Source: Elusimicrobiota bacterium
GTDB lineage: Bacteria > Elusimicrobiota > Elusimicrobia > UBA1565 > UBA9628
NCBI GenBank assembly: GCA_016209035.1
Contig: JACQWX010000035.1
Span: 45,565-109,564, forward strand
Direction of reading: 5' to 3'
Length of the DNA stretch: 64,000 nt
A model generated the notes under the pieces. It was not told the origin of the DNA. It ran no database searches and worked only from the letters and a program-made list of their open reading frames with translations. Position numbers and translations under genes: made by a program. Shown here piece after piece: positions 37,766-59,591 of this stretch; position 1 is the stretch's first letter, and the number at the start of each line of letters is the position of its first letter.

Positions 37766-37842
37766 TGCGGGGTGGAGCAGCCCGGTAGCTCGCAAGGCTC
37801 ATAACCTTGAGGTCGCTGGTTCAAATCCAGCCCCCGCAACCA
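37766..37842 (+). tRNA. Initiator tRNA-fMet (CAT), CCA encoded
   Basis: TGCGGGG...CAAGG-CTCATAA-CCTTG...TTCAAAT...CCCCGCAACCA; A11:U24 pair; closely resembles bacterial tRNA-fMet. TGcTATCTT lies upstream. Confidence 0.97.
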
Positions 37843-45330: not shown

Positions 45331-45683
45331 CGTTTCTCGAGACGGTCCGCGATCTTGGCCAGCTCGGCGCCGACCCCTTTCAAGCCCTTCTTGAGGTTCT
45401 CCCGCACCTTCTCGGCGGTCTCCTTGCCGGATTCCTTGCCGAGGATGACGACCTTCTTGAGCTGGTCCCCGACCTTGCGGCCCTGGTCGCTCTCCTTGGC
45501 CGTCTGGAGCGCGCTGACCACCTTCTCGCCCACGCGCTGAAGGCTCCGGGATATCTCGGAGCTCAAGTCCTTGAGCTCAGGGCTCCTGGCCGCGGCCCGG
45601 AAGGCCTTCTCGACCTGCTTGCCGAGCTCGGTGACTTCCTTCGTGAGATTCGGACGCTGCGTCTTGTTGCATTTCTTCGCCAT
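45327..45683 (-). CDS. Small Lys/Glu-rich helical hypothetical protein
   Basis: 118-aa ORF with good codon usage and a GGAGG SD. Confidence 0.75.
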   Translation of the reverse strand: MAKKCNKTQRPNLTKEVTELGKQVEKAFRAAARSPELKDLSSEISRSLQRVGEKVVSALQTAKESDQGRKVGDQLKKVVILGKESGKETAEKVRENLKKGLKGVGAELAKIADRLEKR

Positions 45684-48600
45684 GGCTACCCTCCATCCTA
45701 GTCGTATCCCGTATCATATCATGACGCCGCGGCGACGGCAAGGCGCTTGACGCGGCGAGGAGGTCCGCGAGGGACTCGTGGAACTTCACGTCGTCGAGGT
45801 CCGTCACGTTGCTCAAGGAACGGTTGGCCGAGGTGAAGACCAAGGACGCCAGGTAGTAGGCCTGCCTCGCGTCGTCGAGGCCCGACTCGACGATCGCCTT
45901 GACCAGGGGGTGGCCCCTGGAGACCCCCACCGTCCGGGAATCGTCGAGCAGGACCGGCTCGTTGAAGGATTCCTCCCTCCACTCCACGGCTCCGGGCAGG
46001 ACCATCATGCCCCGCAGGCCCTTGACCTGCTTGAGGACCCTGCGCAGGGCCGCGAGGTTCGCGGGCTCGGGCGGCCGGGCGGGTTCCGGGACCGGCTCCA
46101 CGGGCCGGGACAGAATCGCCGGCGTGACCTCGGCCGGCTTGAAGGGCCTGAGCTTGACGCCCAACTTCTTGCAGACCAGGCTCTGGATCGCGAGCTGCTC
46201 GCACTTGCCCAGGACCGGAATCCAGGCGTCTTCGGGGAAGTGAAGATAGACCGCCTTCGGTGAGTAAGGGAGGCACCCCCTCTCCCTGGCTCTCGACCAC
46301 AGGCCCTCGATGCTGGCAAGATCGAGGCCCAGGGCCGGCAGCATCTTGAGCGCCCACATCCTTGCCAGGACCGTTCCCAACCGGCCCTCCGGCCTTTTCT
46401 CCGGGAGATCGTTGAGCCCCAGGACCTTGAGGACGTAGCGCACCGCGGTCCGGTGCTTGGCGTCGGCAGGCCCGCCCATGGGCCAGGCATCGAGGAAATC
46501 CTCGTAGAACCGGCAGAACATCTGGAGCAGGACCTCCTCGGACGGAATGCACTCCGGGTCCGGCGAGGAGGAAAGGTCGAAGAGCCCGACCCCGGCCAAT
46601 GGGAGCCCCTTGGGGGAGAGCCTCAACAGAGGCTCGCCAGGGGCCTTGCGGAAGATGAGCTCGGGTGTCTCCTTGAAGCGCTCGGGCAGGCCGATGAGCG
46701 CGGTCAGGCCAAGCTCTTCGTAGCGTCTCTCGAAAAGCATCGGCCCCACGGCTTTGGTGAAACCCAGGGCAGGAGCCGGCATGGTCTGAGCTGACATCGC
46801 CGGCGCGGGACGTGCCGGAGCCACAGGGGCGGCCGCCTCAAGACAGGGCGCGGGCTCCCCGGCCCCGGCCCCCTCAGGAAGGTCCGGGAATCCCACGATC
46901 ATGAGATGGTCGGCCCTCAGAGGCCAGAGCCTCTTGACGGCGTCGAGGTCCGCGGGGTCCAAGATGAGGCCCGCCCAGAGGCGCGCCCCTGACTCGCGCA
47001 GGGCGTAGAACACAGAACCGCCGCCAGCCAGCTTCGCCCCCAAGTTCCCCAGCGTGATGCCGGCCGCCGTCGCTGTCTGGAAGAAGGGGAGCAGGCGCAG
47101 CAGGTCCTGGAGCCGCGTCGAGGCGCCTTCGACGGTCTTGCCCGGCCAAGGAGCGCAGAGCCTGGACACGGCCTTGAGCAGGAAGCGCCTGGCCGAATGC
47201 TCCGGGCACCGCCAGGCCGTGCCGTGGCGCTCCACGACCGCGGCAGCCAAGGCCAGGCCGACGTCGTAGCGGCCGCAGAGCTTCGCTTCCAGGTCGGGCA
47301 GCTTCGCGTCTTTGCCGAAGGCCGTGACCGTGCCCCAGGGGAGGGAGAGCTTCCTGCCTCCCTCGCCTTCGCCCACGGTCAGATGGACTTCGGGCGAGGC
47401 GACCGCGAGCAGGCAGCCGAGATGGCTCTTGTGCTCGCAGGCAGGCGCGGGCGTCTTCCTGAACACGAGGCGCACGCCTTCGAGGCCGTCCACCCCCAGG
47501 AACCCGGCATCCGGCAGGATGGCGCCGAGGAGAGCGTCGGTGTACTCCTTCCCCACGATGACCCTCTCCGACCGTAGGGGACCTGCGGCCGCGACCGCGT
47601 CGAGGACGCAGAAGACCTTCCCCTCGTTGAAGGCGCAGCGCAGGCGCTCGTAGTCGAGCCAGCCCGTTTCGGTCCGGAACAAGGATACCTTCCCGGCCCA
47701 TCGGCGGGCCTCGGCGCTGGCGGCCCCTTCCTTGCCCTCGACGGCCGCGGCCGCGAGATAGTCCAGGAGAGCCTCCCTGATGGCGGCGGTGCGCCCGTCC
47801 GTCTTCCAGCAATCGTATTCCTTGGCAAGCCTCCGGTAGAGCTCCGCGGCGCATCCGGCCGCGGCCGCCGCGGCCTGGCCGAGCTCCGCATCGGTCCTCA
47901 GGCTGCCGGCCAAGAGCGAGACCGCGGCCGCCACGAAGCGGGGCTTGGGCGCCACGTCCAGGAGTCTCGGGCCCGCGTCTTCGCAGACGTAGATGTGGGA
48001 CCGCCGGGAGCGGGACAGGACCGGAATCCCCACCTCGAGCCGGGCTCGGCCGTCCTTGAAGGTGTCGCGGATGAGGAGGTCGGTGAAGCCCATCTGCGAG
48101 AGGACCTTGAGGTCCTCGTGAGCCGGGCCCGGAGCCGAGCCCGCGACGCCCCCCCACTCCTCGACCGCGAACGACATGTCCCTGATTGCGTCCGGGAAGA
48201 GCTTGGTCAGGAGCCTGAGCACCCTCTCGGACGAGAGCCAGACGGCCGGGAAGAAGCGCTTGGCGCCCTTCTCATAGCGCTTCGACACCGCCACGAACCC
48301 CATCCGGTTGCGCGCGGCGTCCACGTCGAACAGGCTCAGTATCTCGCCGCCCGAGCCCAACAGCGTGGGCTGGGTCCAGAGAGCCTTGTGCAAAGGGTCC
48401 CTGCTGTCCTTGGCATAGCCGGAGAGGTTGGACTCGCACGCGTCCAACAGCCACGCCTGGATGCGTCCCAGGCGCTCGAGATCCTCCCGGCCCCGGTCCG
48501 GCTTGTCCGAGACGAAGCGCAGGGCCTTGCCCAGCAAGCTCAGCAGGCCGGGCCCCTCGGCCGCCCTGCTGCGGTCCAGGATGTCCCTCCAGGGGGATAC

Positions 48601-49557
48601 GCCGATCTTGGCGATGAGGCTCGACGCCTTATGGAGTCTGGCCTCGTTGCCCGAGAGGACCTTGAGCAAAAGCTTGTCGGCTTGGGCCGCCACCTTGTCC
48701 ATGGTCGTCTTGTACCGGCCGCTCTTGGCCACCCCGGTCTGCGAGGCGTTCAGGAAGAAGAGGTCGTCGTTGACCAGCCCGTCCACCTGGAACCGGGGGA
48801 GCTGGTGGGAGACCGGCCCGACCTCCACGCCGTAGGTGAAGACGCGCAGGCTGCTCTCCTGGGCAAGGCTCTGAGGCGCGGTGAGCCACACGCGCACGCC
48901 TTCCTCGTCGAAATAGACGCTGACGTCGGGGTCGAGCGCCGGGATGCTGGCGGCCTCCTTGCCGTCCACGAGGACGGAGGTTGGAGCCGCCTGGCAGGAA
49001 CGCCGCACGAGCGCCGCGACCTCGTCGAAGGCGCCCACGAGCTCGCCGCGGTGGACCTCGAACACCGTGTCGGTCCCGGCCTCGGACACCGCCTGGACCT
49101 TCTCCGAGCGCAGGGACTCGACATCGAGCCTGACCCTGCCGCCCTGGGAGCCCGAAGTCACGCTCAGGCAGTCTTGCTTGAACCGCAGCGCGGTCAGCAG
49201 GGCCACGGCCAGCTCCTTGTCCCTGGCGGTATCGGCCGTGCGCTTGTTGAACAAGACGGAATAGGGGTCCTCCAACTCCGCCCGCGAGAAGGGCCTGCCG
49301 TCGAACCTCACCTCCAGGCGGCTCGTCCCGAGCGACGCGCCGCGGCCGGTCTGGATGCGGATGCGCTTGGCCCCGCCGGCCACCGCGGCTCGCAGGAGCG
49401 GCAGGACGAACATCCCCGCCTCCGGCAACTGGAAGCGCATGAGCTTGTCGAGGGCGCGGCCGCGGTCGATCTTGAAGGAGCCGGTCTCGACCAACGCGGC
49501 CCCTTCGCTGTCGGGAAGCCCTCCGGTCCCGGAGCCCAGCTCGGTCTCGGGGCTCAT
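45577..49557 (-). CDS. Giant HSP90-like protein with catalytically degenerate GHKL domain
   Basis: N-terminal GSFKIDRGRALDKL..FQLP..FVLPLLRAAVAGGAKRIRI..FDG aligns with the GHKL fold but lacks the N, G1 and G2 box residues. VSRGHPLVK near the C-terminus. The ATG overlaps the upstream stop. Confidence 0.65.
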   Translation of the reverse strand: MSPETELGSGTGGLPDSEGAALVETGSFKIDRGRALDKLMRFQLPEAGMFVLPLLRAAVAGGAKRIRIQTGRGASLGTSRLEVRFDGRPFSRAELEDPYSVLFNKRTADTARDKELAVALLTALRFKQDCLSVTSGSQGGRVRLDVESLRSEKVQAVSEAGTDTVFEVHRGELVGAFDEVAALVRRSCQAAPTSVLVDGKEAASIPALDPDVSVYFDEEGVRVWLTAPQSLAQESSLRVFTYGVEVGPVSHQLPRFQVDGLVNDDLFFLNASQTGVAKSGRYKTTMDKVAAQADKLLLKVLSGNEARLHKASSLIAKIGVSPWRDILDRSRAAEGPGLLSLLGKALRFVSDKPDRGREDLERLGRIQAWLLDACESNLSGYAKDSRDPLHKALWTQPTLLGSGGEILSLFDVDAARNRMGFVAVSKRYEKGAKRFFPAVWLSSERVLRLLTKLFPDAIRDMSFAVEEWGGVAGSAPGPAHEDLKVLSQMGFTDLLIRDTFKDGRARLEVGIPVLSRSRRSHIYVCEDAGPRLLDVAPKPRFVAAAVSLLAGSLRTDAELGQAAAAAAGCAAELYRRLAKEYDCWKTDGRTAAIREALLDYLAAAAVEGKEGAASAEARRWAGKVSLFRTETGWLDYERLRCAFNEGKVFCVLDAVAAAGPLRSERVIVGKEYTDALLGAILPDAGFLGVDGLEGVRLVFRKTPAPACEHKSHLGCLLAVASPEVHLTVGEGEGGRKLSLPWGTVTAFGKDAKLPDLEAKLCGRYDVGLALAAAVVERHGTAWRCPEHSARRFLLKAVSRLCAPWPGKTVEGASTRLQDLLRLLPFFQTATAAGITLGNLGAKLAGGGSVFYALRESGARLWAGLILDPADLDAVKRLWPLRADHLMIVGFPDLPEGAGAGEPAPCLEAAAPVAPARPAPAMSAQTMPAPALGFTKAVGPMLFERRYEELGLTALIGLPERFKETPELIFRKAPGEPLLRLSPKGLPLAGVGLFDLSSSPDPECIPSEEVLLQMFCRFYEDFLDAWPMGGPADAKHRTAVRYVLKVLGLNDLPEKRPEGRLGTVLARMWALKMLPALGLDLASIEGLWSRARERGCLPYSPKAVYLHFPEDAWIPVLGKCEQLAIQSLVCKKLGVKLRPFKPAEVTPAILSRPVEPVPEPARPPEPANLAALRRVLKQVKGLRGMMVLPGAVEWREESFNEPVLLDDSRTVGVSRGHPLVKAIVESGLDDARQAYYLASLVFTSANRSLSNVTDLDDVKFHESLADLLAASSALPSPRRHDMIRDTTRMEGSHGEEMQQDAASESHEGSHRARQAGREGLPGRGQEP

Positions 49558-51269
49558 CTCGCCCTCGGCGGCGCGTCGAGCCTGAGCGCCGCGTGCAGGA
49601 GCTTGGCCTCGACCTTCTCGGCGAGGTTCGAGAACCTCCCCACCTGGTCCGGCGGGACCTCGCCGTCGTTCAAGTGCATCACCTTCAGGCACATGTACGC
49701 CGCCAGGCCCGGCATCCGCTCATGGACGGCGGCGAGGTTCCTGACGAACGGATGGTCGGCGTTGAGCAGGGCGTGGCCCCGGGCGCGCCAGAGCGAGAAC
49801 AAGGACGGCGTGTGTCTCTCGTCGGCCCGGGAGAGGCCGCCCGGGCTCGCCTGAGTGACGAAGATCCTGTCCGTGATGCACGAACCGGCGTAGTCGAAGT
49901 TCGCCATGTCGATGCCGAGGTACTTGGCGCCGGTGCCGGCGTCCATGCCGGAGAGGGTCTTCAGGAAGGCGCGCATCCCGGCGTCGAGCTTGGGCCCGGG
50001 CAGGACCGACGGCATGATGTAGGTCGTCGACGCGTCCCGGACCGTGATGCCCCGCTCGAGCCATTGGCCGCCGAGCTCCGCGGCCCAGGGGCCTTCGACC
50101 AGGACAGGGAAGCCCTTGGCCGCCAGCGCCAAGGCCACCTTGTCGGCCGTCTTGGCCAGGTAGAGCGCGTGGCCGGACTCGTGGAGGGCGCTGCCGATCC
50201 CGCTCAGGGAGACGGCCTTGCCAGTGACCGACGGGAAGATGGGCCAGTCCGAGCGCTTCCACCTCGCGAACATCCCGCCGAGGAGCCACTTGAGGTACCG
50301 GAGCCGCGACATCCAGCGCTCCGACAAGCGCGGCTCGGGCTTGAGCCCTGAGGCGGCCCTGGAGGCGATCTCTTGCGCGGCCTCGCCGAGCTCGGCCTTG
50401 AGCTTGGCCGGGAGCTCGTCCTCGGCCAGGCGCTTGACGATGGCCATGGCCTTGCGGAAGTTGTCGTCCTCGAGGACGTTGTCCCGGGTGATGGTGTGCT
50501 CGAGGTAGCGCGACTTGATCTTGACCGCGACCCCGGGGAAGTGCTCCTTGCGGCCCTCCTTGAGGGTGAGGCCCTTGTTGTAGAACCCGAAGAAGGGCGC
50601 GGGCTCACCTGTGAAGCCCAGCACGATCTCGGTGCCCTCCTCGGAGTGGCGCAGGCTCTCGCCCTCCGGCAGGGTGAAGGGCTCGTTGATGAGCTGGGGC
50701 CGGCCGCCGGCCCTTCGGTCGTGGAAATAGATGCGGGTGTCCGAGTGCTTGCACCAGAAGCGCACGGTCTTCAAGGAGTCCTCGGCGAGCTTGGGGTACT
50801 CCCCGGCGCCCATCTTCTTGAAGAGCTCGACGAGGGTCCCCTCGCGCATCGCGCTCACGCGGAACTTCTCGTAGCGCTTGTAGCTCGGGAAATCCAGCCT
50901 CCACGACTCCCCGGCCTTGGCCGTGTGCACCCGGACCAGGTCGGGCCGCAGGCTGAAGACGGAGACGATGCCCACGCCGAACTTGCCGATCTTGGTGAGG
51001 TCGTCCTCCTTGGTCGAGCGGAACAGCACCAGGAAGTACTCGTCGATGATGCGCTCGTCCATGCCCTCGCCGTCGTCCTCCACCGCCATGCGGGCGGCGC
51101 CGGTCTTGCCGTCGTATTCCAGGGTCACGTCGATGCGGTTGGAGCCGGCGTCGATGGAGTTCTGGATGAGCTCCCGGTAGAAGGCCAGGGGGTCGGAGAA
51201 CTGGTCGACTAAGTCCTTGACCAGGCCCGGGACCGACGCGGTGGCCGCGCCCTTGGCTTTACCCGCCAT
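49554..51269 (-). CDS. HSP90/HtpG-like GHKL ATPase
   Basis: RELIQNSIDAG (N box), VEDDGEGM (G1), STK..IGKFGVG (G2) and GTLVEL (G3); C-terminal LLNADHPFVRNL; GGAGG SD. Confidence 0.85.
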   Translation of the reverse strand: MAGKAKGAATASVPGLVKDLVDQFSDPLAFYRELIQNSIDAGSNRIDVTLEYDGKTGAARMAVEDDGEGMDERIIDEYFLVLFRSTKEDDLTKIGKFGVGIVSVFSLRPDLVRVHTAKAGESWRLDFPSYKRYEKFRVSAMREGTLVELFKKMGAGEYPKLAEDSLKTVRFWCKHSDTRIYFHDRRAGGRPQLINEPFTLPEGESLRHSEEGTEIVLGFTGEPAPFFGFYNKGLTLKEGRKEHFPGVAVKIKSRYLEHTITRDNVLEDDNFRKAMAIVKRLAEDELPAKLKAELGEAAQEIASRAASGLKPEPRLSERWMSRLRYLKWLLGGMFARWKRSDWPIFPSVTGKAVSLSGIGSALHESGHALYLAKTADKVALALAAKGFPVLVEGPWAAELGGQWLERGITVRDASTTYIMPSVLPGPKLDAGMRAFLKTLSGMDAGTGAKYLGIDMANFDYAGSCITDRIFVTQASPGGLSRADERHTPSLFSLWRARGHALLNADHPFVRNLAAVHERMPGLAAYMCLKVMHLNDGEVPPDQVGRFSNLAEKVEAKLLHAALRLDAPPRAR

Positions 51270-51337
51270 GGCGGCCTCCCGGACGGCTCCGCACGGCCCG
51301 CACGCCACGCTCCGTTCTCATGATCCCTCGCGTTTCA

Positions 51338-51613
51338 CTAATATATCAGATTGCGGCCCGCCGGCACCGGCCCCGCTCCCGCGGGCCAGGAATTCCGCCT
51401 TCGCTGCCGTATCGGTCGATCCATCCGACCGTCTCCGGCAGGATCTTGGCGCCCCGGGTGCCGCTGACGTGCTTGAGGACCCGCCGCCGCGCAGCACAGG
51501 AGCGGCAGGACGAACATGTCCGGGTCGGGGAGCTGGAAGTCCCTGAGCTTGTCCAGGGCCAGGGACCGGTCGACCTTGAAGCCCCCGGTCCCGACGAGGG
51601 CGTCAGGAGGCAC
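51338..51613 (-). pseudogene. Internally deleted paralogue of the 45577-49557 gene
   Basis: GGFKVDRSLALDKLRDFQLPDPDMFVLPLL matches the giant protein's N-terminus. After a frame switch, RRVLKHVSGTRGAKILPETVGW matches its near-C-terminal RRVLKQVKGLRGMMVLPGAVEW. Confidence 0.8.
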
Positions 51614-53183
51614 GGCCTTCTGTCAGGCCCTGCGCCGCGGCCCGCTGGGCGCTCAAGTGGAATCGGATCTCCTGGACCCGGCCCTGGAAGCGCTCCTCCT
51701 CGGCCTTGGCCTGGGCCTCGCGCTCGAAGCGGACGTGCTCGGTGATGAGTTCCTGGATGCGGCTCGCCGTCACGGTCCTGGAGAGCTCGGCGATCATCTT
51801 GGCCTTGGCCGCGAAGTCCAGGCTGAAGTACTCGGGAGGCTCGGTGAAATCCTCGATCTCGGTGAGGACGCGGCCCGCGAGGTTGTCCACGGAGCGGCCG
51901 GAGAGCTTCTCCTTGATGCAGCGCTCTCCCAAAGCGCGCCACTCGTCCTCGGAGCACTTGAGCCACGGCCCTTTGCCGCGGAGCTTCACGACGCGCAGGA
52001 GGCGGACGTAGTCCTCGACGGCCTCGGGCCCCAGGGCCTTGATGGGCGTCTGGGAGAGGCGGCTTAAGGTCGCCGAATCCATGTGCAGGGTGTTGGCGTC
52101 GCAGACCATGAACCACTTGCCGTTCTTCGGGCCGATGGTGCCGTCGAGGATGCCGAAGATGGCGCCGAGGTTGGCCTTCTCCTCCTGGCGGATGTCGGCG
52201 TCCCCGCGCGCGGCGAAGGCGGTGTCGATGTCGGGCCAGTAGACCCCGCAGACCCCCTCGAACCTGAAGACCTCCTCCTGGAAGATCTCGAGCAGGCGGC
52301 TCGCGGACTGGTTCTGATACGAGGAGGCCCAGTCCGTGCGCCGGATGACGCGCATCCGAGCCGGGACGGACGCCTTCCTGCAGAGGTCCAGGAAGTGGTT
52401 GCCGATGGCGTGAGCGGTCACGGTCTTGCCGCAGCCGGGAGCGCCCAGCACGAAGAGGATCTGGTTGCGCACGCCTTTGGGGTTCTTGCCCTCCTTCAGG
52501 TCGAAGCCCGCGATATCGCGGGCCAGCCTGGAGCCGGCCTTGATGAACTCGGCGTTGCCCACCACGTCCTCGAAGGTGACGGGGTTGAGGGCGCTTGGCT
52601 CCTCCATCTTGACCCTGTTGACCCTGAGGCCTGAGAACTGGAGCCTCGGGGTCTCGACCGACAAGTCCGCGGGCGGCGGGAACATCCGGACCAGGAGCCT
52701 GGCCACGAGCCTGAAGTAGGAGCCGAGGCACCGCAGGGACTCCGCGTCGCGCTTCAAGCGCTTCGAGCCGTCCGGGTGGCGCTGGTAGAAGCGCAGGAAG
52801 CTCGCCGCGTCCTTTAGCAGGATGTCGAGGGTCTCCCTGCCGCCGGCTTTCGCCAGGTCCTGGTAGTCGCGCAGGGCCAGGCCCGCGGCATCGGGCGGCT
52901 CCTCGGCCGCTCCAAGCCCCGCCAGGCGGTCCGCCGCGTCCTCGATGAAGAGGCGGCCGAAGACCGGGCCCGGGAGCCCCTGGGCCTGGGGATTGCGCAA
53001 GCCGGCCGAGGCCGAGGCCAAGGCCTGCGCCAGAGCGTCCAGGATGGAGAGGTTCAAGGCCGTGGTGCCGAAATCGCCAAGGTCTGCCTCGCAGAGGATG
53101 CGGCCTAGGCCCGCCGCGACCACGGCCCGCCTCGCGTCCGCCAGTTCCGCGTCGATGTCTCGCCGCTCGATCTTTAGCTTCAT
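51603..53183 (-). CDS. AAA+ ATPase (classical-clade-like) with variant Walker B
   Basis: VTFEDVVGN, Walker A GAPGCGKT, pore loop ASSYQNQS, Walker B position VYWPDID, and ILDG / DAN..MDSATLSRL second-region-of-homology motifs. Confidence 0.82.
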   Translation of the reverse strand: MKLKIERRDIDAELADARRAVVAAGLGRILCEADLGDFGTTALNLSILDALAQALASASAGLRNPQAQGLPGPVFGRLFIEDAADRLAGLGAAEEPPDAAGLALRDYQDLAKAGGRETLDILLKDAASFLRFYQRHPDGSKRLKRDAESLRCLGSYFRLVARLLVRMFPPPADLSVETPRLQFSGLRVNRVKMEEPSALNPVTFEDVVGNAEFIKAGSRLARDIAGFDLKEGKNPKGVRNQILFVLGAPGCGKTVTAHAIGNHFLDLCRKASVPARMRVIRRTDWASSYQNQSASRLLEIFQEEVFRFEGVCGVYWPDIDTAFAARGDADIRQEEKANLGAIFGILDGTIGPKNGKWFMVCDANTLHMDSATLSRLSQTPIKALGPEAVEDYVRLLRVVKLRGKGPWLKCSEDEWRALGERCIKEKLSGRSVDNLAGRVLTEIEDFTEPPEYFSLDFAAKAKMIAELSRTVTASRIQELITEHVRFEREAQAKAEEERFQGRVQEIRFHLSAQRAAAQGLTEGRAS

Positions 53184-54142
53184 AGTGTGTAGATCAGGTT
53201 CCTCGTGCCCGCCTCCTCGAGTCTCTTGCGGAGCTCCGCGGCCGCGGAAGCCTCGCACACGAACTTCCTGTCCTTGTGCACGCGGTAGCCGAGCCTCCGC
53301 GCCTCCTCCTCCACGATGGACCGGGACCCCTCGGACAGGAAGCGCCGGTAGATGCCGCCGAACGGGTCGTCGTCGCGGTCCTCCTGGAGATGGATCGAGG
53401 CCCGGTCCGTGGGCAGGTGGAGGACGTAGCGGCCTTCGGCCCAGCCCTTGGGCGCGGGCGCGGCCGGGCTCCACAGGGGGCCGATGCGGGCCCTCGTCAC
53501 CTCCTCCACGCGCACGCCCGGGAGCTTCCCCATGAGGAGGAACGCGATCTCGGAGTCGTCGCCCGTGTACATCTCGAGCTTCTCGCGCAGGTCCGAGGTC
53601 TGCCGGCTGTAGTCGCCCGCGCGCTCGATGATGCGGCCTCGCTCCCACTCCGACTGCTCGAGCATGAGCGTGTGGCGCACGAAGATCTGCTCCGCCGGGT
53701 CGAACCGGTCGAACACCACCTCGAAGAAGGCCGAACGCCGGCCCGGGTCCTGGCGCCGCAGGGCGACCTCGACCCTGGTCAGGGGCTTCAAGGGCACCCC
53801 ACAGAGGCGGCGGTAGTACTCGACCTTGGCCTCGATCGCGGGCTCGGGCCTGCGCCCGCACCGGCGGCGAGCCTCGATCTCCACGATGAAGCCCGGCGCG
53901 GTCTGCCGGTCGGCCCAGACGTCCACCAGATGCTTCATCCCGGGCAGGCCGCTGCATCGGTCCACCTTGATGCCCCGGTGCGTTCCGTTGTGGAAGGAGG
54001 GGGCGAGCGCCCTGAGAAAGTCGCTGCACTGGTAGGGGTCCGGGAAGGTCTTGCCCAGCCTGCCGGCCAGGACCATCCGGGAAGCGGTGGCCGCGAGGTC
54101 CTCGAGCTCCTGGTCGGAGACGGCCTTGAGACGCGAAATCAG
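53180..54142 (-). CDS. Hypothetical protein (probable CTG start at 54142; first ATG at 54076)
   Basis: Good codon usage. The frame is open and coding-like upstream of the ATG (LISRLKAVSDQELEDLAATASR), back to a CTG overlapping the upstream stop. Its own stop overlaps the AAA start. Confidence 0.7.
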   Translation of the reverse strand: MISRLKAVSDQELEDLAATASRMVLAGRLGKTFPDPYQCSDFLRALAPSFHNGTHRGIKVDRCSGLPGMKHLVDVWADRQTAPGFIVEIEARRRCGRRPEPAIEAKVEYYRRLCGVPLKPLTRVEVALRRQDPGRRSAFFEVVFDRFDPAEQIFVRHTLMLEQSEWERGRIIERAGDYSRQTSDLREKLEMYTGDDSEIAFLLMGKLPGVRVEEVTRARIGPLWSPAAPAPKGWAEGRYVLHLPTDRASIHLQEDRDDDPFGGIYRRFLSEGSRSIVEEEARRLGYRVHKDRKFVCEASAAAELRKRLEEAGTRNLIYTL

Positions 54143-55191
54143 CTCTTCCCCCCCCGCTCCTTCCTCGCGAGCTCGATGGTCTCGTTGATCCGGGACTCCT
54201 TGATCTCCCGCTCCGCCTTGAGGTTGCTCTCGACCAAGGCCTCGGTCTCGGCGTCGTAGATCTTCATCTCCGCGGTCATGCGGTCCACGTTCTTCGCGAG
54301 GAACAGCGAGGTGTCGGAGGCCAGGGTCGCGAGCTTGTTGACCGACTTCTTGAGCGACTCCATGGAGCGGTGCATCTCCACCGAGAGCTCGCCCGCCTTG
54401 GAGATGGAGGCCAGGCCCGCGAGGTTGCCGTGGAGCTCGTTCAAGACCTCGTTGCCGGACTCGTAGAGGCTCGTCATGTTGCCGTGCAGGTTGGTCATGA
54501 TCTCCAGGAAGTTGTTGTTCATCTTCACGATGGCGGAGAGCCGGTCCTCGGCGTTCGAGTAGAGCCTGAGCTTGGCCCCGTGCTCCCAGATGGCCCTCTT
54601 GAGCTCGTCGATCCTGGCCGCGAGCTCGCGCGCCTCGGAGCTCTTCGGGTCCATGGACGCCATGCCGGCCTCGACCTTCTTGCGCAGGTCCTCGAGCTCC
54701 AGCACGTAGCTCGCCGCCTTCTCCTCGTTATGGGCCGCCGCCAGCATCTTCTTGTTGAGGCGGGTGATGTCGTTCTGCAGGTTCTTGATGTCGGACTGCA
54801 AGGCGTCGAGGTAGTTGCCGACCTCCTTGACCCTGGTCTGGGCGATCTCGATCTTCTCGCCGAGGAGCTCCTTGAGGTCCCGGCTGGGCGCGAAGCCTCC
54901 CAGGAGCGGGAGCTTGGCCAGAAGCCCCTTCACGTTCGCGCCGATCTGCCGGAAGGCGAAGATGGCCGAGAGGTACTCCATCACGGTCTTCTGCCCCGCG
55001 ATGTCCGCGGACATCTCCTTCGAGAGCCTGGAATAGGCGTCGGAGAGCTCGCCGAACTTCTGTAGGTCGGTCGTGTTCTTGGCCTGGTAGTCGCCCAGCA
55101 TCTTCTCCAGGCCCTCGCGGGTGTAGCCTTCCCCGTCGTAGACCACCTGCTTGCTGAGCGTGTCGGTGACTGCTTTCTGATCGATCGCCAT
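54139..55191 (-). CDS. All-helical coiled-coil protein, TelA/KlaA (toxic anion resistance)-like
   Basis: 350 aa with heptad patterns, an amphipathic GLLAKLPLLGGF segment and C-terminal IYDAET reminiscent of TelA; GGAGG SD. The family call is an inference. Confidence 0.6.
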   Translation of the reverse strand: MAIDQKAVTDTLSKQVVYDGEGYTREGLEKMLGDYQAKNTTDLQKFGELSDAYSRLSKEMSADIAGQKTVMEYLSAIFAFRQIGANVKGLLAKLPLLGGFAPSRDLKELLGEKIEIAQTRVKEVGNYLDALQSDIKNLQNDITRLNKKMLAAAHNEEKAASYVLELEDLRKKVEAGMASMDPKSSEARELAARIDELKRAIWEHGAKLRLYSNAEDRLSAIVKMNNNFLEIMTNLHGNMTSLYESGNEVLNELHGNLAGLASISKAGELSVEMHRSMESLKKSVNKLATLASDTSLFLAKNVDRMTAEMKIYDAETEALVESNLKAEREIKESRINETIELARKERGGKS

Positions 55192-58650: not shown

Positions 58651-58744
58651 TGATACTGTAGGACAACCCGTCCGCGCTTCCGCGCTGGAACGGGCCTGTT
58701 GAGGTTAGGCCCGAGGCCCCGGCGAGGGGAAGAGCGAGGATGGG

Positions 58745-58822
58745 CGATAAATGGCAAACCCGCCGCAAGGCGGGGGCGCAAAGCCAAGGCTCCCTCGGGG
58801 AGGGAGGGCCAGGTTGCCGAAC
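58745..58822 (+). ncRNA. c-di-GMP-I (GEMM) riboswitch aptamer
   Basis: GGCAAA-CCCGCC-GCAA-GGCGGG-GGCGCAAAGCC...GGTTGCCGA: GNRA-capped P2 and the conserved GCAAAGC junction. G occupies the ligand-discriminating position. Confidence 0.88.
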
Positions 58823-58923: not shown

Positions 58924-59168
58924 GCGGTCCTCCCGAACGCGCGTACGCGCGCGTACGACAACCGTGCTTCCTTGCGAGTGGGTCGATGGTCCCATCAACC
59001 GCTAGGCCCCCTTACGACCTCCCGCAAGACCAACGGCCCAGGCGCCAGCCTCATCGGCGGTCTACACTAATGGGGAGAGCCGCCATGCAACAAAAAGTTA
59101 ACACGCCCGAAACAACCATGAAACAGGCCGGGGGTAAAGTTATCTCGGAGACGGAAGGAGGCGCCGAG

Positions 59169-59591
59169 ATGAATACCACCGAGACCTCGAAGAAGTTCTT
59201 CCTGGCGTGCGCAGTGGCAGTGGCCCTGGGCCTGCTCGCACCGAAGGCTCAGGCGCAAGAAGGGCTCCTCGACCTCAATCAGAAGATGCTGCGTGGCTCC
59301 GCCATCGTCGAGAGCTGGGGCGCGCCGGCCGACAAGACTTCCTGCAGGATGGCGAGCATCCTCGGGATATGCGGCGACGGCGTCGGGATGCAGGCCCGGT
59401 CCCCCCGCAAGCCCGGCAGCTGGCTCGTGGGCTGGCGGAACCTGCGCAACCTCAACCTGAACCTCACCCGGTTCAACCCGAAGAAGGCCGCGCCGAACCG
59501 GCTCTTCCAGATCGTCAAGATGTTCATCGACGATGTGGAGATCGCCGAGGTCGGCGACTTCAAGATCAAGCTCTCGATCTCGCTGGAATGA
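59169..59591 (+). CDS. Small exported hypothetical protein
   Basis: AAGGAGG SD; signal peptide ending AQA; two Cys in the mature part. Confidence 0.75.
   Translation: MNTTETSKKFFLACAVAVALGLLAPKAQAQEGLLDLNQKMLRGSAIVESWGAPADKTSCRMASILGICGDGVGMQARSPRKPGSWLVGWRNLRNLNLNLTRFNPKKAAPNRLFQIVKMFIDDVEIAEVGDFKIKLSISLE

Follow-up and report, generated by a model that had tools for sequence, protein, structure and literature searches.

A conserved bacterial gene module combining an Hsp90-like ATPase, a giant and apparently inactive paralogue, a variant AAA+ protein and two families without annotation

Organization of the gene cluster

Do five neighboring genes, three of which encode proteins without a recognizable family, form a single module, and what might such a module do in the cell? 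The question is raised by a cluster in the genome of an Elusimicrobiota bacterium (assembly GCA_016209035.1, contig JACQWX010000035.1), within a stretch of 64,000 nucleotides (nt; contig positions 45,565 to 109,564) that was analyzed as a whole and is termed the window. Position 1 is the first base of the window, and the gene labels G1 to G5 were assigned in the analysis. Between positions 45577 and 55191, open reading frame (ORF) calls place five co-oriented genes and one gene remnant on the minus strand, in a stretch with a GC content of ∼64–71%. The names that homologues bear point to the groundwater Elusimicrobia. The cluster is one conserved, co-inherited module and not a chance neighborhood. 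Its members are as follows (aa, amino acids).

54139–55191, minus strand: G1, 350 aa, helical protein, no Pfam family
53180–54142, minus strand: G2, 320 aa, no family and no recognized fold
51603–53183, minus strand: G3, 526 aa, AAA+ protein of the classical clade
51400–51601, minus strand: apparent remnant of a second G5 paralogue, located by blastx and a G5 N-domain hidden Markov model (HMM)
49554–51269, minus strand: G4, 571 aa, predicted divergent Hsp90 paralogue with intact ATP-binding motifs
45577–49557, minus strand: G5, 1,326 aa, putative giant pseudo-Hsp90 that evolves fast and differs in copy number between loci

The genes overlap by 4 nt at the G1/G2, G2/G3 and G4/G5 junctions, while G3 and G4 are non-overlapping and separated by a spacer of ∼330 nt. 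A co-oriented gene set with a deleted remnant had been proposed for this stretch in an earlier, sequence-only reading, and it is real, as judged from the ORF calls, the overlapping junctions and the homology found in the spacer. An alternative ATG start of G2, at position 54076, would give a product of 298 aa; the start at 54142 is favored, because the N-terminal stretch is kept in homologues. No transmembrane segment was predicted by hydropathy in any of the cluster proteins. A scan for promoters and terminators, which is uninformative for this phylum, returned one sigma-70-like site (0.4 expected) and three terminator-like sites (5.0 expected), with no sigma-70-like site near 51340.

Distribution, linkage and inheritance

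Among 61 related genomes, G1 was detected in 23. G2 (22 genomes), G4 (21) and G3 (20) did not occur outside this set, and the remaining 38 genomes yielded none of the four genes; many of the 61 are incomplete metagenome-assembled genomes, and the relatives are not independent, such that these counts and the tree shuffles given below overstate the support. The sequence-only reading had allowed that homologues of the three upstream genes might lie unlinked to the HSP90-like pair in other genomes. This was looked for, and the pattern across the 61 genomes proved to be a shared one.

A pattern scan that used one genome per species yielded 53 loci with a G2 relative, in records titled Elusimicrobiota, Vulcanimicrobiota, Myxococcota (including Bradymonadales) and ‘Deltaproteobacteria’. 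G1 adjoins G2 in 47 of these loci, and four of the six misses had no room for it at a contig end; G3 was present in 36 loci and G4 in 37. Sixteen loci retrieved genome by genome showed the same patterns and were not counted a second time.

The association of G4 with G5 is similarly close. Forty-seven copies of G4 were examined, of which five lay at a contig end, and G5 adjoins G4 in 36 of the 42 testable copies, including all nine that are located away from G1–G3. This bears out the earlier proposal that an active HSP90 is encoded together with an inactive giant. In the five genomes where G4 is not next to G1–G3, it was found elsewhere in the genome in every case. In three loci the G4–G5 unit is convergent to G1–G2–G3, still adjacent to it, and some genomes carry extra G4–G5 pairs elsewhere. 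The distribution thus shows two evolutionary sub-modules, G1–G2–G3 and G4–G5.

Presence or absence of the module is mostly uniform within genera. The trees of G1, G2 and G3 (the last a quick version) agree with one another and cluster by host family, with 3–5 label changes versus 7.5–9.2 after shuffling (0 of 200 shuffles were as low). The flanking genes are of the housekeeping type in 15 of 16 other loci scanned, and are syntenic in the nearest relatives. No integrase or transposase was found among the flank ORFs scanned, and G1 gave no plasmid or phage match by tblastn.

Several loci have individual arrangements. In one Vulcanimicrobiota-type locus (L061, 14748–19926, 4628–7998 upstream), a module without G5 is situated between dnaG–rpoD and two mreB genes, mreC and a PBP2-type transpeptidase gene; five related loci (L062–L066) are also devoid of G5. 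In locus L048 (7003–8753, minus strand), an AAA_21/AAA_15 ATPase gene and a DUF4276 gene, a defense-type pair, lie directly upstream of G1, the only such neighbor in 16 loci. In a genome of the same genus as that of the window (L110, 4731–9098), G1 is followed directly by G4, without G2 or G3; the G4 frame encodes 715 aa with an extra G5-type C-terminal piece, and the other strand carries a G5 N-domain. The copy looks like a rearranged or decaying module. In one relative, ∼4.5 kb of ORFs without a Pfam family are inserted between G3 and G4 (L054, 12538–17056; the same stretch as L029, 5956–10412).

G4, a divergent Hsp90 with intact ATP-binding motifs

G4 matches the Pfam family HATPase_c_3 (E 9.7e-13). 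Its Bergerat-fold ATP site is complete, comprising the catalytic Glu, the Mg-binding Asn, and the DxGxG, GxxGxG and GT boxes, and the corresponding positions (E33, N37, D65-x-G-x-G, G95-x-x-G98-x-G100 and G144-T145) do not vary among the 16 sequences aligned. Also invariant is R254, a candidate for the catalytic arginine of the middle domain, inside a conserved S-R-Y-L-E-H-T stretch that we take to resemble the Hsp90 catalytic loop.

A Foldseek search with the AlphaFold2 model of G4 (mean predicted local distance difference test score, pLDDT, 84.2; predicted template modeling score, pTM, 0.74) recovered the full-length Hsp90s HtpG, Hsc82 and TRAP1, with E values between 5e-20 and 1e-17. By VIA, the closest structure was GRP94 (Z 19.3; 463 residues aligned over model residues 1–559, root-mean-square deviation 12.5), followed by TRAP1 (Z 17.0) and HtpG (Z 15.2). 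The middle domain matched that of HtpG (2gq0, Z 7.2), and the C-terminal domain matched 8oxu (Z 7.8, model residues 424–559) and the C-terminal domain of HtpG (1sf8, Z 7.3, model residues 434–560). MutL, topoisomerase II, MORC and the SR1 region of sacsin covered only the N-terminal 190–330 residues (Z 13–15). The Pfam HSP90 profile (PF00183), in contrast, did not match G4 at E≤0.1, and a search of the window's genome with it at E≤1e-10 found nothing. On its model, G4 is a complete N-terminal–middle–C-terminal (N-M-C) Hsp90, albeit a very divergent one, with intact ATP-binding motifs. The sequence-only reading had already called it a GHKL/HSP90-like ATPase with intact boxes, to which the 16 aligned sequences and the full Hsp90 fold of the model now lend weight. 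The region assigned by the VIA matches is located as follows.

49575–50000, minus strand: G4 residues ∼424–565, Hsp90-type C-terminal (dimerization) domain, as predicted from the model

The N-domain of G4 also matches the sacsin ATP-binding model NF047352 (E 1.2e-11), Pfam SACS, and the TmtA model of the Tiamat system in PADLOC (E 6.7e-10), the last over residues 18–115 (98 residues) and thus at the level of the domain only. Two G4 matches in other genomes (G039:C15:107485-109128 and G056:C128:639-2381) carry one in-frame TGA each, and may be pseudogenes or assembly errors.

G5, a giant paralogue, and its remnant

The N-terminus of G5 is homologous to the N-domain of G4 (hhalign probability 98%, E 2.7e-13, 245 columns), and G5 residues ∼1068–1257 align with G4 residues 340–552 (87.8%, E 3.3e-6, and 90.2%, E 1.5e-6).

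48673–49494, minus strand: G5 residues ∼22–295, degenerate GHKL-like domain, by hhalign against G4
45787–46356, minus strand: G5 residues ∼1068–1257, homologous to the C-terminal region of G4, by hhalign

In the N-terminal domain, all of the ATP-motif positions of G4 (among them the catalytic Glu, the Mg-binding Asn, DxGxG and GxxGxG) are replaced, and the Arg of the S-R-Y-L-E-H stretch is likewise missing. By these alignments, G5 is an apparently inactive paralogue of G4 that retains Hsp90-like N- and C-terminal domains. The loss of catalytic residues from the GHKL-like domain of the giant had been noted beforehand and holds at every motif position of the hhalign alignment; the C-terminal motifs singled out at that time (LLNADHPFVR and VSRGHPLVK; N/R-x-x-H-P) fall within the aligned C-terminal regions of the two proteins. 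G5 had no Pfam or PDB sequence match (best PDB profile E 1) and nothing specific in PADLOC, NCBIfam or PHROGs. Internal repeats in G5 were considered; they reached an hhalign probability of 40–54% only, and no claim is made for them.

G5 is also the variable member of the module. It is 54% and 47% identical to its nearest relatives, compared with 71–86% for G1–G4, and occurs in one to four copies per locus, as anticipated by the earlier suggestion of variable giant partners. The spacer between G3 and G4 contains an N-terminal G5-like piece (34 of 62 residues identical to G5 21–82, by blastx) and a C-terminal piece (16 of 34 residues identical to G5 1167–1200); the two are in different frames and partly overlap, and the G5 N-domain HMM matched the spacer at E 2.1e-16. 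These pieces fit a second G5 paralogue that has undergone an internal deletion, and hence the earlier view that two giants were formerly encoded here. In two other loci (L057, 16438–18321, and L058, 9779–11656), G5 is followed by a gene for a WD40/beta-propeller-like protein of ∼625 aa, and then by an unannotated ORF of ∼440 aa.

G3, a variant AAA+ protein

G3 matches the Pfam family AAA (PF00004) with 27.5 bits, above the cut-off of 21.2. Its first ∼190 aa are helical and precede a single AAA domain, after which the protein ends in a helical tail. A PDB profile search gave weak matches to NVL, p97, NSF and ClpB (E 2.6e-4 to 0.09). The Walker A motif (G-P-G-C-G-K-T) is invariant in 17 of 17 sequences, and so is a variant Walker B motif (W-P-D318-I319-D320-T), which has Ile where the catalytic Glu is expected. 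The earlier designation of G3 as a variant AAA+ protein is thereby upheld. N364 and R375 are invariant in the same 17 sequences and were assigned by eye as a putative sensor-1 Asn and arginine finger, the PDB profile alignments covering the Walker A side only. In PADLOC, only mad8 and IetA matched, at 2e-3 to 3e-3.

Classical AAA+ proteins that act on helical assemblies are exemplified by Vps4 (acting on ESCRT-III) and NSF (acting on SNAREs). The parallel with G3 lies in its single AAA domain of the classical clade, its helical N-terminal region and the position of its gene beside that of a helical protein. Unlike these systems, no MIT or NSF-N domain was detected in G3, its Walker B motif is D-I-D and not D-E, G3 is dispensable in some lineages, and G1 has only a weak hairpin likeness to ESCRT-III (template modeling (TM) score 0.38 in the ESM Atlas).

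G1 and G2, and their predicted complex

G1 is the most conserved member of the module. Its mean column identity in the alignment is 78%; pairwise identity is 66–86% within the order and 45–48% in the Vulcanimicrobiota-type loci, and the 120 clusters listed, whose records bear the names of several phyla, all have 56% identity or more. The family is nevertheless small, with 98 representatives at E≤1e-3 among 1.84 billion. G1 is a helical protein, in which no window of 19 residues exceeds a Kyte–Doolittle value of 1.13. It had no specific match in Pfam, NCBIfam, PADLOC or PHROGs (the best PDB profile, at E 0.024, was that of a photosystem protein), only weak matches of the coiled-coil type to the PADLOC models LmuB (2.8e-5), DruC (6e-4) and JetC (1e-3).

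Two distant G1-like proteins (P0250, 474 aa, and P0259, 578 aa) have long extra C-terminal helical regions; they are from AT-rich organisms, and the family therefore extends past the high-GC lineages. Another sequence (P0247, 407 aa) was considered as a true GHKL–G1 fusion and rejected, as a low-complexity linker is followed by a Met-initiated G1; it is probably a truncated G4 (a sacsin-type GHKL N-domain) that is read through into G1. It places G4 before an adjacent G1 in yet another organism.

G2 had no match in Pfam, NCBIfam, PADLOC or PHROGs (best PDB profile E 0.76), and its family comprises 71 clusters. The AlphaFold2 model of G2 is confident (pLDDT 88.8, pTM 0.88), and Foldseek searches of the PDB and BFVD with it returned nothing at E≤1e-3, suggesting that G2 adopts no recognized fold. 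A T-fold enzyme was considered as a candidate and rejected (VIA Z 5.0–5.9 over ∼95 residues, below the typical best Z of unmatched models); the ESM Atlas search was unusable, the Atlas model having a pLDDT of 0.33.

A complex of G1 with G2 was predicted with a score of 0.80 (0.77–0.81 in three runs), versus 0.00 for the best of three controls; a mark of 0.80 is reached by 58 of 80 solved complexes and by 2 of 110 mismatched pairs, a calibration that is only rough for this pair since its score rests on custom alignments. The runs share at least 79% of contacts, with a partner pLDDT of at least 83. The predicted interface is formed by two patches of G1, which are among its most conserved stretches, and, in G2, by a long helix (residues 68–106) and a sheet edge. 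Binding of G1 to G2 is thus a supported prediction of the models.

54781–54879, minus strand: G1 residues 105–137, conserved helix, predicted G2 contact in the complex model, many invariant columns
54409–54444, minus strand: G1 residues 250–261, second predicted G2-contact patch in the complex model, many invariant columns

The sequence-only reading had termed G1 TelA-like. An ESM Atlas feature search indeed linked G1 to a cluster automatically named ‘putative TelA’ (0.93) and to a cluster of which 10% of the members carry the TelA family PF05816 (0.91). By structure, the Atlas gave TM scores of 0.67/0.58 over 318 residues to a cluster in which all members carry PF05816. G1 and TelA are also of similar length and all-helical. 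The difference lies at the level of sequence, where no membership of G1 in the TelA family was found. PF05816 did not match G1 at E≤0.1 and had no match in the window's genome, with true TelA genes located elsewhere in six relatives, and none of 42 distant members of the G1 family matched it at E≤1e-3. Two low-scoring runs of hhalign gave probabilities of 0.8% (E 0.072, P 0.07) and 1.9% (E 0.026, P 0.03), the second with an alignment that is global and colinear over 226 columns (G1 62–302 to TelA 47–307). Of the TelA label, the likeness in the ESM Atlas has therefore stood, while the Pfam and hhalign comparisons do not bear it out; features and model make it a lead only.

Comparison with known systems

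No system-level model covers the cluster in PADLOC, NCBIfam, Pfam or PHROGs; no NCBIfam model scored over its cut-off, and G2 and G5 had no PADLOC match at all. A match to an existing defense model, raised at the outset as a possible explanation, was thus searched for in PADLOC 2.0 and not found at the level of a system. The gene combination was likewise not described in the literature searched, mostly at the level of titles and abstracts; related clusters may be listed in work on Hsp90-like immune proteins (Nicastro et al., 2023). In agreement with the earlier impression that the combination has no name, it appears to be new, and three of its five proteins (G1, G2 and G5) are without a family.

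G4 shares with the Hsp90 family (HtpG, TRAP1 and GRP94) the N-M-C architecture, the Bergerat ATP motifs and the predicted fold of the C-terminal dimerization domain. It differs in that it escapes detection by PF00183, is shorter and has no charged linker, and in that its gene shares an operon with those of dedicated partners, an inactive giant paralogue among them. Bacterial HtpG, as usually described, functions with no co-chaperones of its own. The presence of canonical HtpG is not tied to that of the module: it was found in 8 of the 61 relatives, six with the module and two without.

The sacsin, Tiamat and NOV group of sacsin-like GHL ATPases is related to G4 through the N-domain models NF047352, SACS and TmtA. 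Sacsin and G5 are both giants based on an Hsp90-like domain, and in G5 there are hints of repeats within the protein. Full-length G4 is closer to Hsp90 proper than to sacsin SR1 (Z 19.3 versus 13.5), and the Hsp90-like domain of G5, unlike those of this group, appears catalytically dead. A further difference is that no DUF3684, NOV_C nuclease (PD-(D/E)xK), J or HEPN domain was detected by Pfam in G4 or in 17 relatives of G5. Sacsin, with its repeated Hsp90-like domains, has been linked to the organization of intermediate filaments, which is an analogy to the pairing of G5 with the helical G1, and not evidence.

The Tiamat preprint describes, after Nicastro et al. (2023), Hsp90-like immune proteins in which an Hsp90-type core is combined with rapidly evolving modules and with fused N-terminal HD or calcineurin-like effectors. 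On that description, on which the comparison is based, G5 is similar in its Hsp90-type core and rapidly evolving modular region, and both G4 and G5 differ, as Pfam detected no HD, calcineurin-like or nuclease domain in either. MutL-alpha-type GHKL heterodimers and asymmetric Hsp90 dimers offer a further analogy, that of a GHKL dimer with unequal ATPase sites; in G5, in contrast, all of the ATP-binding motifs are lost.

Proposed function and alternatives

The reading that we favor, and hold tentatively, is that of a chromosomal, mostly vertically inherited and dedicated protein-remodeling machine, in which two ATPases act on a G1:G2 scaffold. The module is more likely to be cellular than a mobile defense island, because the flanks are of the housekeeping type, G1 has no plasmid or phage match and is unusually conserved, the trees follow host families, genera are mostly uniform for presence, and one Vulcanimicrobiota locus is placed between dnaG–rpoD and mreB–mreC–PBP2.

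In such a machine, G4 would pair with G5 through the Hsp90-type C-terminal domain to form an asymmetric clamp with a single working ATPase site. The clamp is proposed from the way in which Hsp90 and MutL-type GHL proteins work, with a constitutive C-terminal dimer and ATP-driven N-terminal closure, as set out in the Tiamat preprint and generally understood. The long variable middle of G5 would serve as a binding platform, the G1:G2 complex as scaffold or client of the clamp, and G3, where present, would disassemble or reset G1:G2 assemblies; the roles of G1:G2 and G3 are suggested by the gene order and the AAA+ clade. As a guess, G1:G2 may be a cytoplasmic or membrane-proximal helical scaffold.

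Several observations weigh against this reading. Besides the non-independence of the relatives and the rough calibration of the complex score, the module has no fixed composition: the six G4 copies without G5 represent one related group of Vulcanimicrobiota-type loci, and G3 was not found anywhere in four of the five genomes that lack it in the cluster. Its occurrence is patchy (G1 in 15 of 401 sampled genomes of the phylum, and in 1 of 23 in one genus). G3 is devoid of the Walker B glutamate, so that its capacity for hydrolysis is uncertain. Finally, the fast divergence of G5, its variable copy number and its remnants also fit a conflict system.

The main rival, in our judgment less probable than the favored reading, is such a conflict system, directed against phages or mobile elements. 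In it, G5 would sense molecules of the invader and G4 would pass the signal on to the effector G1:G2 (e.g., a membrane-active helical protein), which G3 would arm or reset. The variability of G5 (47–54% identity versus 71–86% for G1–G4 in the nearest relatives, one to four copies per locus, and the deletion remnant in the window) speaks for it, and the extra G4–G5 pairs elsewhere in some genomes, the patchiness in the phylum, the domain-level match of G4 to TmtA (E 6.7e-10), the AAA_21 and DUF4276 pair next door in 1 of 16 loci and the Hsp90-like immune proteins with fast-evolving modules, as described in the literature, point in the same direction. Arguing against the conflict system are the failure to find a system-level match in PADLOC or NCBIfam, or an HD, calcineurin-like or nuclease domain in G4 and G5. 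Other features that do so are the housekeeping flanks (15 of 16), syntenic in the nearest relatives and free of integrase or transposase among the scanned ORFs, the lack of plasmid or phage matches for G1, the agreement of gene trees with host families and the conservation of G1 far beyond that of usual defense effectors. A further point against it is that no transmembrane segment was predicted in any protein.

Two other explanations were weighed. In a TelA-type module for envelope or toxic-anion stress, G1 would play the part of TelA/YaaN proteins at the membrane, maintained there by the two ATPases. The ESM Atlas scores (0.93/0.91 for features, TM 0.67/0.58 for structure) and the global, colinear course of the low-scoring hhalign alignment favor it; yet TM scores of this size are easily attained by long helical bundles, the hhalign probabilities are 0.8% and 1.9%, PF05816 matched neither G1 nor the window's genome nor the 42 distant relatives, and no Ter or Kla genes adjoin the cluster in the window, making this explanation improbable. 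The chance that G1–G2–G3 and G4–G5 are unrelated units that merely lie side by side here is slighter still. A spacer without gene overlap sets them apart in the window, three loci have them in convergent orientation, and several genomes carry them unlinked, but they follow a single presence/absence pattern in 61 genomes, G4 is retained in all five genomes where it is unlinked, and the units are adjacent across phyla and even after inversion. The greatest share of our confidence, short of one half, is thus given to the cellular machine, a lesser one to the conflict system and a small one to the TelA-type stress module, with the remainder unassigned.

Other features of the window

The genes flanking the cluster in the window are ordinary housekeeping genes, encoding an SLT transglycosylase, an AFOR-like oxidoreductase and a methyltransferase on one side, and a CDP-alcohol phosphatidyltransferase, RNase H and a Na/Ca exchanger on the opposite side. 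Two RNA features were also located.

58743–58821, plus strand: c-di-GMP-I riboswitch (RF01051; 65 bits, gathering score 35), with an ORF for 201 aa without a Pfam family (58986–59591) ∼165 nt downstream of it
37766–37842, plus strand: tRNA-Met (CAT), the sole tRNA in the window

Implications

Bacterial Hsp90 is poorly understood, and in this module the gene of an Hsp90 paralogue shares an operon with those of a fixed set of partners, comprising apparently dead giant copies, an AAA+ motor and two unannotated families. At its most far-reaching, and with a low probability in our estimation, G4 might be the first Hsp90 of a prokaryote to have partners of its own. It would form asymmetric dimers with giant pseudo-Hsp90s, which would be interchangeable and correspond to sacsin in bacteria, and, together with a variant AAA+ protein, would assemble and dismantle a conserved helical G1:G2 scaffold of a new fold class, in a machine common to Elusimicrobiota, Vulcanimicrobiota and Myxococcota and not seen before.

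Should the module prove to be a cellular machine, asymmetric Hsp90 clamps and sacsin-like giants could be studied in a tractable bacterial model; should it prove to be a defense system, it would represent a new Hsp90-centered immune architecture with separate sensor paralogues. On either reading, the unannotated families G1, G2 and G5 gain a context and partners that can be tested.

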